Virus record (IMG/VR): IMGVR_UViG_2529292907_000015
Span: 1 to 41,886 of that record
Reading direction: 5' to 3' (one strand)
Source of the DNA: a virus
Lineage: Duplodnaviria > Heunggongvirae > Uroviricota > Caudoviricetes
DNA length: 41,886 nucleotides
Numbering within the stretch: the first letter of the stretch is position 1; each line of letters starts with the position of its first letter. A program made the position numbers and the translations under genes. Shown in pieces: positions 6,198 through 7,024 of this stretch. The notes under the pieces are model-generated. The model made no database searches and was not told the DNA's origin. It worked only from the letters and a program-made list of their open reading frames with translations.

Positions 6198-6213
6198 GGT
6201 AACAAGAGTTACC
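6198..6213. promoter_or_regulatory. putative left operator (OL-like) palindrome GGTAACAAGAGTTACC within the presumed leftward early promoter
   Basis: Perfect inverted repeat GTAAC-N4-GTTAC, the same motif found twice between the repressor and cro-like genes. A TTGACT -35-like hexamer sits just upstream on the minus strand. Confidence 0.45.
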
Positions 6214-6252
6214 TTTCGAGTCAATACAATGTTGCAAAAGGTACATTTGAGG

Positions 6253-6280
6253 GCATAAAAAACCCGCAATGAATGCGGGT
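6253..6280 (-). terminator. rho-independent terminator downstream of the repressor gene
   Basis: Minus-strand hairpin ACCCGCA/TGCGGGT with a 5-nt loop followed by UUUUUAU, just beyond the cI stop. Confidence 0.7.
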
Positions 6281-6286
6281 TCTGAC

Positions 6287-6961
6287 TCAGTCTAAGTATT
6301 GATGTATTTGTGAAACTTTACCTTTAATGGTGTAACCACCATTCAGTTCGATGGGTTTGTAAAGCGGATTCAGTGACAACAGATAGATGTTTGGTCCGTC
6401 AATCGCAACTTTTTTTAGTGTTACGTTTGGCGTTCCTTCCAATTGGATTAAGATTATTTTTCCCACCAGTTCTCTAATGTTACTTGAGCATGGTGTGATC
6501 AGCACGGTAGATCCGTCGGGGATGGTTGGGAGGCCGTTAGAGTTTGTCATCGCATCTCCCTCAACATGCAATAAAAAAGAGTTTTCAGCGGTTTTTGTCA
6601 TGACATCAACCCAATTCTTAATACCAGGAATCTCGGTTACTGGACAACTCATATCCCAATAACCAGCCTGTTCCCACGTTAAAACGGGCAACCGGGCGAT
6701 GTTGTCACTAATGTAAGGGTACTGATTCAGACGCAGATCATCGGCTTTATCGTGACCGTCCTTTCCATAAAGAATCCATTCAGGAGATTTGGAAAGCAAT
6801 TTTGACAGTAGATACAAATTCTCACCGTCAGGTTTTGAAGAGCCATTTTCCCATTTTGTTACGGATACACGAGATATGCCGATTGCTTTCGCAACCTGCT
6901 GTTGGGTTAATCCAACGTCTTTTCGACGATTCCGAATACGTTCGCTGATAGTGTTTTTCAT
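6287..6961 (-). CDS. cI: CI-type prophage repressor (XRE-family HTH plus LexA-like S24 peptidase domain)
   Basis: N-terminal HTH (LTQQQVAKAIGISRVSVTKWENG) and C-terminal S24-like autocleavage domain. Start set at ATG 6961 directly abutting an operator palindrome; alternative in-frame starts at 7003 and 7060. Confidence 0.85.
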   Translation of the reverse strand: MKNTISERIRNRRKDVGLTQQQVAKAIGISRVSVTKWENGSSKPDGENLYLLSKLLSKSPEWILYGKDGHDKADDLRLNQYPYISDNIARLPVLTWEQAGYWDMSCPVTEIPGIKNWVDVMTKTAENSFLLHVEGDAMTNSNGLPTIPDGSTVLITPCSSNIRELVGKIILIQLEGTPNVTLKKVAIDGPNIYLLSLNPLYKPIELNGGYTIKGKVSQIHQYLD

Positions 6962-7024
6962 GTAACCAATGTTACTACCAAGTGATGTTGCTATGGTTGA
7001 CATTGTTATGTAACTATTGTTACC
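6962..7024. promoter_or_regulatory. immunity-region operators (OR-like) and divergent promoters
   Basis: Palindromes GTAACCAATGTTAC (6962-6975) and GTAACTATTGTTAC (7010-7023), plus overlapping GTTATGTAAC (7005-7014). TTGACA -35 hexamer at 6997-7002 on the plus strand facing cro. A -10 could not be placed confidently. Confidence 0.5.

Follow-up and report, generated by a model that had tools for sequence, protein, structure and literature searches.

Three GTAAC-N4-GTTAC repeats as predicted operators of a P22-type immunity region in a lambdoid prophage

The 41,886-nucleotide viral sequence IMGVR_UViG_2529292907_000015 (Caudoviricetes; the whole stretch, positions 1 to 41,886, is called the window below) is a lambdoid prophage in which an inverted repeat, GTAAC-N4-GTTAC, occurs three times, flanking a cI repressor gene, with all copies within 825 bp. 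The three repeats are taken here to be the strong operators of a P22-type (immC-like) immunity region, predicted sites for both cI and Cro, a reading to which we give a probability of about 0.88. Very probably they are the binding sites by which the repressor and Cro of this E. coli prophage shut off the early promoters. The sites, named after the left (OL) and right (OR) operators of related phages, and the two regulatory genes are as follows.

OL1 operator, 6196-6215: core GTAAC-AAGA-GTTAC at 6199-6212, that is, GTAACAAGAGTTAC, with 8-bp arms AAGGTAAC and GTTACCTT; exact motif, rank 2 of 41,869 by position weight matrix (PWM), invariant in the alignment of the left side (A5).
OR3-equivalent operator, 6962-6975: GTAACCAATGTTAC, abutting the cI ATG; exact motif, PWM rank 3, an invariant block in the alignment of the cI-cro spacer (A4).
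OR1-equivalent operator, 7010-7023: GTAACTATTGTTAC; exact motif, the best PWM match in the window.
cI repressor gene, 6287..6961, minus strand, 224 aa: Pfam HTH_3 (3.5e-17) and Peptidase_S24 (9.5e-17); helix SRVSVTKWE.
cro, 7053..7268, plus strand, 71 aa, P22 Cro family: Pfam P22_Cro (2.9e-16), PDB 1rzs (9.3e-12, residues 1-59); helix SHVAVVRWK.

An earlier note on this DNA had placed the motif on both sides of the repressor gene and had suggested a genome-wide search as a check on its specificity. An exact-pattern search of the 41,886 bp found these three copies and none elsewhere, as the note had said. The enrichment is plain: 100 dinucleotide-preserving shuffles gave a mean of 0.03 copies and a maximum of 1, against the three observed. 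A separate repeat search arrived at these three copies as one family, spaced 763 and 48 bp apart. When one mismatch was allowed, a single further match appeared, at 15051, against a chance expectation of about 1.2, and that site was dropped as an operator candidate. A PWM derived solely from 26 sites in relatives, and scored over the 41,869 positions of the window, put 7010, 6199 and 6962 at the top, with 6231 fourth.

The repeats had been described as perfect 14-bp palindromes; they consist instead of 5-bp inverted arms round a 4-bp centre that is asymmetric and A/T-rich (AAGA, CAAT and TATT). The sole longer repeat is the left site, with its 8-bp arms. Together with the relatives, the sites give an extended consensus of about 18 bp, a(t/g)GTAAC-N4-GTTAC(a/c)t, round a 5+4+5 core, and the inner two positions of the centre are A or T in 47 of 52 half-site counts. 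Read along their respective promoters, the operators of the rightward and leftward early promoters (PR and PL) are nearly identical (GTAACTATTGTTAC and GTAACTCTTGTTAC). An overlapping GTTATGTAAC, to which the earlier note had also pointed, is not conserved in relatives, where only the AT before GTAAC is kept, and it was ruled out as an extra site. Also dropped was GTAACTCGAAGTAT at 6141, which lies within a flank common to phages of other immunity types.

Homologues of cI were fetched by protein similarity, not by the motif: one from Salmonella (70% identical), two from metagenomic contigs (66% and 52%), one from Hamiltonella (52%), and those of Pectobacterium phage ZF40, E. coli phage vB_EcoS-733R5 and Pantoea phage AH07 (42-43%). 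All have a GTAAC-type site 0-2 bp from the cI ATG and a second site exactly 48 bp away. OR3 keeps its position, and the 48-bp OR3-OR1 spacing is preserved, in loci L004, L006, L007 and L009 as in ZF40, 733R5 and AH07 (cI 42-70% identical); the positions of sites are conserved across cI homologues of 42-100% identity. In the cI-cro spacer of loci whose cI is 66-96% identical (A4), the invariant elements are CATGTAA..GTTAC, GGTTGACA, ATGTAACTATTGTTA.CCT, AGGAG and the ATG, and the rest varies. For homologues with a cI at least 66% identical, OR1 is always ATGTAACTATTGTTA. On the left side (A5), the invariant elements are AAGGTAACAAnAGTTAC, TCAA, a GT...G(G/T)TAC element and the terminator. In IMG/VR, a scan for this layout as a pattern matched at least 120 contigs. 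Among the matches listed, 62 of 65 distinct cI proteins have the helix SRVSVTKW; and 61 distinct OR regions from a clade with cI proteins of 219 aa, again among the matches listed, give an information profile made up of OR3, OR2 (+25) and OR1 (+48) footprints with unconserved DNA between. The left operator of that clade has 2-3 sites, most commonly 35 bp or about 32 bp apart.

The sites also lie where immunity is exchanged. Megablast against 50,697 phage records matched only the flanks, to ~6190 and from ~7260; the cassette 6191-7262 was in none of those records, and the best cI found in them by tblastn was 43% identical. Near-identity with phages Tritos and vB_EcoM-606R7 continues up to 6190, stopping about 6 bp before the extended OL palindrome, and homology resumes at ~7210 (606R7) or 7262 (Tritos), inside the 3' end of cro or at the start of the ydaT-like gene that follows it. 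Therefore the DNA bearing the motif is exactly the exchangeable cI-cro cassette. With its right breakpoint so placed, ydaT goes with the right flank rather than with cI and cro, as does any promoter dependent on YdaT. The left breakpoint, at ~6189-6191 relative to both phages, coincides with the putative start of PL. At the OL position 606R7 and Tritos each carry a different palindrome of their own; in a search for repeated perfect palindromes with 5-bp arms, none was found repeated in 606R7, Tritos or phage mEp390, and phage 21 has two. The cassette is present in 702 of 5,426 complete E. coli genomes (~13%), including O55:H7, O111 and ML35.

Phage mEp390 (L010; cI 42% identical) has the same P22-like layout, but its operators read GTAGG-N4-CCTAC (three at OR and two at OL, at L010 1080-1260 and 1830-2120). 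The helix of its cI is NRVTVTGWE where that of the window has SRVSVTKWE, and for Cro the two are SHASVSGWG and SHVAVVRWK; in both cI and Cro, then, the residue before the Trp is G in mEp390 and K or R here. P22 has Q at this position in both proteins (SQW) and the half-site TTAAG. In the repressor as in Cro, the residue before the Trp thus tracks the inner bases of the half-site, and this covariation provides strong, though indirect, evidence that both proteins read these sites. Between them, mEp390 and the GTAAC family appear to constitute a natural specificity switch. The earlier note had supposed that the sites define the immunity specificity of the phage. An operator role is supported; however, the 5-bp core is common to repressors only 42% identical and therefore amounts to a family-level code, not one unique to this phage.

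Might the repeats be bound by only one regulator, or by some other factor (YdaT or a host protein), and not be operators shared by cI and Cro? YdaT-type proteins do bind inverted repeats, TTGATT-N6-AATCAA, in related prophages (PMC9986795). However, that site is unrelated in sequence and spacing to the repeats considered here, and ydaT itself lies outside the cassette, 96-99% common to phages with different palindromes. As for a single regulator, the altered half-site of mEp390 goes with an altered helix residue in cI and in Cro, at one and the same position. This explanation is therefore very unlikely. That the three repeats arose by chance or from base composition and have no function is a notion with the short length of the motif in its favor and nothing else. 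Against it, 0 of 100 shuffles reach three copies, and the sites are invariant while their surroundings diverge; chance is effectively refuted. The reading as cI/Cro operators in an OL/OR arrangement, by contrast, is one on which every computational line agrees: enrichment, promoter elements, cassette, conservation of position and covariation.

The operators can be placed with respect to putative promoters and to weaker sites, as follows.

Putative PR, 6997-7026, plus strand: -35 TTGACA at 6997-7002, 18-nt spacer, -10 TACCCT at 7021-7026; OR1 fills the spacer and the -10.
Putative PL, 6196-6224, minus strand: -35 TTGACT at 6224..6219, 17-nt spacer, -10 TACCTT at 6201..6196; OL1 fills the spacer and the -10.
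Putative -10 of the repressor maintenance promoter (PRM), 6969-6974, minus strand: TAACAT inside OR3, 7 nt upstream of the A of the cI ATG; read from the sequence.
Candidate weak OL2, 6231-6244: GTTGCAAAAGGTAC, between the PL -35 and cI, at 32 bp from OL1; fourth-best PWM match in the window.
Vestigial OR2, 6987-7000: GTTGCTATGGTTGA, 25 bp from OR3, overlapping the PR -35; 4 mismatches in the 10 core positions, PWM rank 111.
Terminator-like hairpin after cI, 6257-6281, minus strand: AACCCGCATTCATTGCGGGTT, then a T run; read from the sequence, with CCCGCA..TG conserved in A5.

Both GGTTGACA and TACC(C)T of PR are invariant in A4 amid DNA that varies, and downstream of PR come AGGAG (7042-7046) and then the cro ATG at 7053. 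The TTGAnn-17-TAnnnT layout round OL1 recurs in L006 and L009, and the TCAA of the PL -35 is invariant in A5; PL would start near 6189. The left site had been described as lying in front of the ydfA-like gene; it is indeed upstream, by 185 bp, but not directly so, lying instead within putative PL. A strict consensus scan missed both PR and PL, and so the promoter assignments rest on conservation. The putative -35 of PRM, ACCATA, is weak.

OL2 at 6231-6244 is probably a weak site: it contains the GT...G(G/T)TAC element of A5, and in L006 (the 66% homologue) the site is a perfect GTAACTATTGTTAC. Across the family the spacing of OL1 and OL2 is 32-36 bp (35 bp in phage 21). No OL3 was found here. 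The OR2 remnant stands where the 219-aa clade has its clear OR2 (GTAACTGTTGTTTG) and where P22 and 21 have theirs. Its right half is now a consensus PR -35, and in A4 no part of it but the leading GT is invariant; it may be taken as vestigial or, at best, as a site for cooperative binding. The two weak sites, OL2 (6231-6237) and the OR2 remnant (6987-6993), share the variant left half ATGTTGC, which may be a deliberately weakened half-site rather than the product of random decay.

A mechanism may be proposed from this arrangement. The C2-like cI and the P22-Cro-like Cro, transcribed divergently, would both bind as dimers to the sites of about 18 bp, a recognition helix reading the outer 5-7 bp and the A/T-rich centre being read indirectly, as in P22. 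Indirect readout of the operator centre has been described for P22 and 434 (PMC3317979), and the A/T-rich centres found here fit that description. OR1 would lie between the -35 and -10 of PR, and OL1 likewise in PL. Since they fill the promoter spacers, bound repressor would exclude RNA polymerase from both early lytic promoters. The weak OL2, and possibly the vestigial OR2, may add cooperative binding, while Cro, or repressor in excess, would stop the synthesis of cI when bound at OR3.

Several observations weigh against this scheme. No paper describing these operators was found in the searchable literature. A sigma-70 consensus scan of both strands over 5800-7400 reported no promoter, and the putative -10 hexamers (TACCCT, TACCTT and TAACAT) match only at the T-A---T positions. 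OR3 fits the motif as fully as OR1 does, and a lambda-like filling order of OR1, OR2, OR3 therefore cannot be assumed. The vestigial OR2 ranks only 111th by PWM and, if transcription starts at the ATG, would lie over the PRM -35, not beside it; activation of PRM in the style of lambda is therefore unsupported. Finally, the IMG/VR set was chosen by the pattern itself, and so it shows the spread of the layout, not an independent conservation of position.

The site at 6962 had been said to abut the cI start codon, and it does adjoin the complement of ATG (6959-6961). RefSeq, however, begins cI at ATG 7003 (238 aa, WP_000103686). If that were correct, the 6962 repeat would be intragenic, OR would be left with a single operator, and the 5' end of the mRNA would be normal or different. 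PGAP and several gene callers do choose the 238-aa form, and the frame is open back to 7060. But in the protein alignment (A3) Met 6961 is invariant, the first residue of all 219-221-aa homologues, and P22 C2 aligns from it. The 14 codons upstream are unconserved as protein (MSTIATSLG, MSTKVTRIS, VSTEGTQKP) with the exception of SN(I/L)(G/N)Y, a mere translation of the operator (SNIGY), and L009 has a different and unrelated 26-aa "extension". ATG 7003, moreover, is part of the conserved PR -35 (TTGACAT) and is also without a Shine-Dalgarno sequence. The invariance of Met 6961 and the lack of conservation upstream, except in the operator, argue that the start is to be read as 6961, and the longer form is unlikely. 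The annotated N-terminal 14 residues of the RefSeq protein would then be operator and promoter DNA; the same over-extension affects the cI of ZF40 and several metagenomic calls.

It is plausible that the maintenance mRNA of cI is leaderless, as the earlier note had suggested, beginning at or within 1-2 nt of the AUG. The 14 nt upstream of the ATG are operator and contain no Shine-Dalgarno sequence; with the operator 0-2 bp from the ATG in every protein-fetched relative, there is no room for one. A TAnnnT hexamer (TAACCT, TAATCT or TAACGT) precedes the ATG in all relatives read, at 7 nt (8 in L009 and ~9 in phage 21). Leaderless repressor mRNAs have been described for lambda cI, CP-933P paaR2 and PY54 cI (PMC8630535, PMC4488713); a literature search for a leaderless P22 c2 mRNA returned nothing relevant. 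With the start at the ATG, OR3 would cover the -10 and +1 of PRM and would repress it. Perhaps, however, the operators and the start at 6961 are real but the maintenance transcript begins further upstream, within or beyond OR, and the AUG is used without a Shine-Dalgarno sequence. The putative PRM -35 is weak and undetected by the scan, and any establishment transcript from the side of cro and ydaT must translate this AUG from a long leader. PRE933P, the YdaT-controlled promoter proposed in CP-933P, would be an establishment promoter of this sort (PMC9986795). Such a leadered transcript is the less probable arrangement, though one with an appreciable chance of being right: the abutment of operator and ATG is kept in all protein-fetched relatives and in P22 and 21, the hexamer is always present at about the same distance, and the leaderless precedents are at hand.

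The repressor itself lacks a catalytic residue. In the S24 domain of cI, the position of the nucleophilic Ser is taken by Ala (codon GCG, ~6549-6551; VEGDAMT, as compared with EGNSM in lambda), although the Ala-Gly cleavage site (EQAGYW) and the Lys (TLKKV) are present. The protein therefore lacks the Ser-Lys dyad of RecA-inducible, LexA-like repressors. A 96%-identical allele (strain PapM-36-2) and an 89% allele also have Ala here, as does the 70% Salmonella homologue, where the codon is GCA; Ser is kept (GDSM or GESM) in the 88%, 66%, 52% and 42% relatives. GDAM occurs in 37 of 39 IMG/VR loci of the window's own clade among the matches listed. LexA S119A and mutants of Ser149 in lambda cI offer analogues for the loss of self-cleavage, and by that analogy the repressor is probably not cleavable through RecA and the SOS response. 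A literature search for naturally uninducible S24 repressors brought up nothing relevant. Although 13% of E. coli genomes have the cassette, no phage record holds a cI above 60% identity, which is consistent with a prophage not induced by SOS but is not proof of one. The Ser-containing relatives ZF40, 733R5 and AH07 exist as sequenced phage records.

One may go further and speculate that the switch is a derived, "locked" form of the P22-type circuit, with its Ser lost, its OR2 decayed and its PR -35 brought to consensus, so that the prophage is blind to RecA and SOS and is induced otherwise, if at all. This is a tentative suggestion, and the odds are somewhat against it. If it is true, a common and apparently intact lambdoid prophage lineage is maintained as a resident that SOS does not induce.

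The rest of the window is consistent with the lambdoid character of the prophage: it encodes an integrase, a RecE-like exonuclease, DicF, a replication initiator, sok, tRNAs, a terminase, a portal, a major head protein, a tape measure protein, J and a tail fibre. Features outside the immunity cassette are the following.

ydfA-like (DUF1391) open reading frame, 5862..6014, minus strand: first gene of the leftward PL operon; Pfam DUF1391 (E 4e-28), annotated likewise in O55:H7 (RefSeq).
ydaT-like gene in the cII position, outside the exchangeable cassette, 7265..7690, plus strand: Pfam YdaT_toxin (7e-10).
DicF antisense small RNA, 4435-4486, minus strand: Rfam 76.7 bits; in the left operon, upstream of dicB.
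sok antitoxin RNA (hokD/sok type), 11665-11836, plus strand: Rfam gathering hit.
Cluster of four tRNA genes, 16306-16612, plus strand: Rfam gathering hits.

The left operon, headed by the ydfA-like gene, is like that of Qin. A gene for DicB is annotated in a 99.5%-identical stretch of strain O17_K12a, whose annotation was used only for 3504-12067, the part collinear with the window. Presumably, by analogy with the role of DicA in Qin, PL and OL1 control the expression of DicF and DicB. On the right, the ydaT-like gene is 96-99% shared with phages of other immunity types, and YdaT has been described as a functional equivalent of CII (PMC9986795). The PL leader is long, about 175 nt before ydfA, and its fold (6012-6189, minus strand) is no more stable than those of shuffled sequences (z = +1.0). 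Minus-strand RNA from ~6090-6125 carries the motif GTAGCC-N-CCGAGGCGTA(A/T)GAA, common to phages of other immunity types and genera (leaders L006, L009, L011 and L013), and this may be a nut-like element. The ZF40 leader has GCCGCTACCGGC at the same place, which could be a small hairpin with compensating changes. A pattern scan of 5800-7400 gave only an intragenic terminator-like hairpin and did not report the one at 6257-6281.

Conceptually this is a standard lambdoid switch and opens no long-standing question. The analysis nonetheless provides an operator code, a(t/g)GTAAC-N4-GTTAC, a cI start and a promoter layout for an immunity type whose proteins are at present annotated only as "LexA family protein" and "Cro/CI family", with a cI start codon that is probably wrong. 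The type is no rarity, considering its presence in about 13% of complete E. coli genomes. Judged by sequence comparison, the GTAAC half-site appears to be a new DNA specificity in a P22-type switch. The family, mEp390 and P22/21 together make up a natural three-way series, with K/R, G or Q before the Trp set against different inner half-site bases, that could serve studies of specificity or the construction of orthogonal repressor-operator pairs.

The earlier note had likened the layout to that of lambda. The OL/OR arrangement stands, but the architecture is that of P22 and 21. Lambda does share with the present region a divergent cI and cro, operators overlapping PR and PRM and an OL beyond cI, and the S24 C-terminal domain found here is homologous to the one in lambda cI (PDB match of 4e-14, as against 1.4e-12 for P22 C2, 1adr and 2r1j). 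Lambda differs in its 17-bp operators, which have an odd centre, and in a Cro of different fold. The OR3 of lambda lies 10 bp from the ATG, and its OR comprises three comparable sites 23-24 bp apart, whereas the window has two strong OR sites at a distance of 48 bp. The cI mRNA of lambda has no Shine-Dalgarno sequence. The gene is leaderless there (PMC8630535).

The operator of phage 434, ACAA-N6-TTGT, has 4-bp arms and a 6-bp centre. As here, the sites of 434 are of 14 bp; their outer bases are conserved, and the centre, which is not contacted, is read indirectly (PMC3317979); the homology of the N-terminal domain of cI to the 434 repressor is weak (4e-5), much lower than to P22 C2. CP-933P (PaaR2/YdaS/YdaT) and Rac (RacR/YdaS/YdaT) resemble the window in that the gene after the Cro-like one, in the cII position, encodes a protein of the YdaT family; CP-933P, moreover, has an OL as well as an OR, and its repressor gene is leaderless (PMC8630535, PMC9986795). 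Their repressors, PaaR2 and RacR, are however not C2/S24 proteins, and their operators were ruled out as a match: the 18-bp repeats (consensus GTTTAGTAA) and the YdaT site are unrelated to the repeats described here.

Closer at hand is the uncharacterised clade of 219-aa cI proteins (ZF40, 733R5, AH07 and many IMG/VR contigs), with the same helix SRVSVTKW (SRVTITKW in ZF40), GTAAC/GTACC-N4-GTTAC operators, an OR3 abutting the ATG and the 48-bp distance from OR3 to OR1. It differs in a cI only 42-43% identical, a clear OR2 (GTAACTGTTGTTTG), 2-3 OL sites, a PR -35 of TTTGCT or TTGCTA in place of the consensus TTGACA, and retention of the Ser (GESM). The record of ZF40 gives its source as an induced lysogen; a literature search for its operators produced nothing relevant.

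It is with the immC region of P22 and 21 that the likeness is most extensive: a C2-like helix-turn-helix N-terminal domain and a P22-Cro-family Cro, half-sites of 5-7 bp round a 4-bp A/T-rich centre, OR3 at 0-2 bp from the repressor ATG, OR1 at +48, OL1 and OL2 about 35 bp apart, and a terminator between repressor gene and OL. In phage 21 itself, the OR3 core is 2 bp from the c2 ATG, OR2 is at +25, OR1 at +48, and OL1-OL2 is 35 bp. With this layout, and with proteins matching P22 C2 and P22 Cro, the switch is of the P22 type and not the lambda type. What one expects of a P22-type immC is found: a C2-like/S24 repressor (save for its change of Ser to Ala), a divergent P22-family Cro, operators with a 4-bp centre and an OL beyond the repressor gene. 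Of the tripartite OR, OR3 and OR1 are exactly placed, and the position of OR2 holds a remnant with 4 mismatches. The core of P22 and 21, TTAAG-N4-CTTAA, is replaced by one with the half-site GTAAC, and the helices differ too, SNVAISQW (C2) and SDAAVSQW (Cro) in P22 as compared with SRVSVTKW and SHVAVVRW here. In phage 21, to judge from its sequence, the PR -35 (TTGACT) overlaps OR2, and OR1 is downstream of the -10; here PR would be about 15 bp further right, with OR1 in its spacer and -10. Further differences are the degenerate OR2, a left operon that is Qin-like (ydfA, DicF, dicB) rather than one with N, YdaT in the position of cII, and the Ala in place of the repressor's Ser. All told, the region should work like the immC of P22 but be heteroimmune to it.

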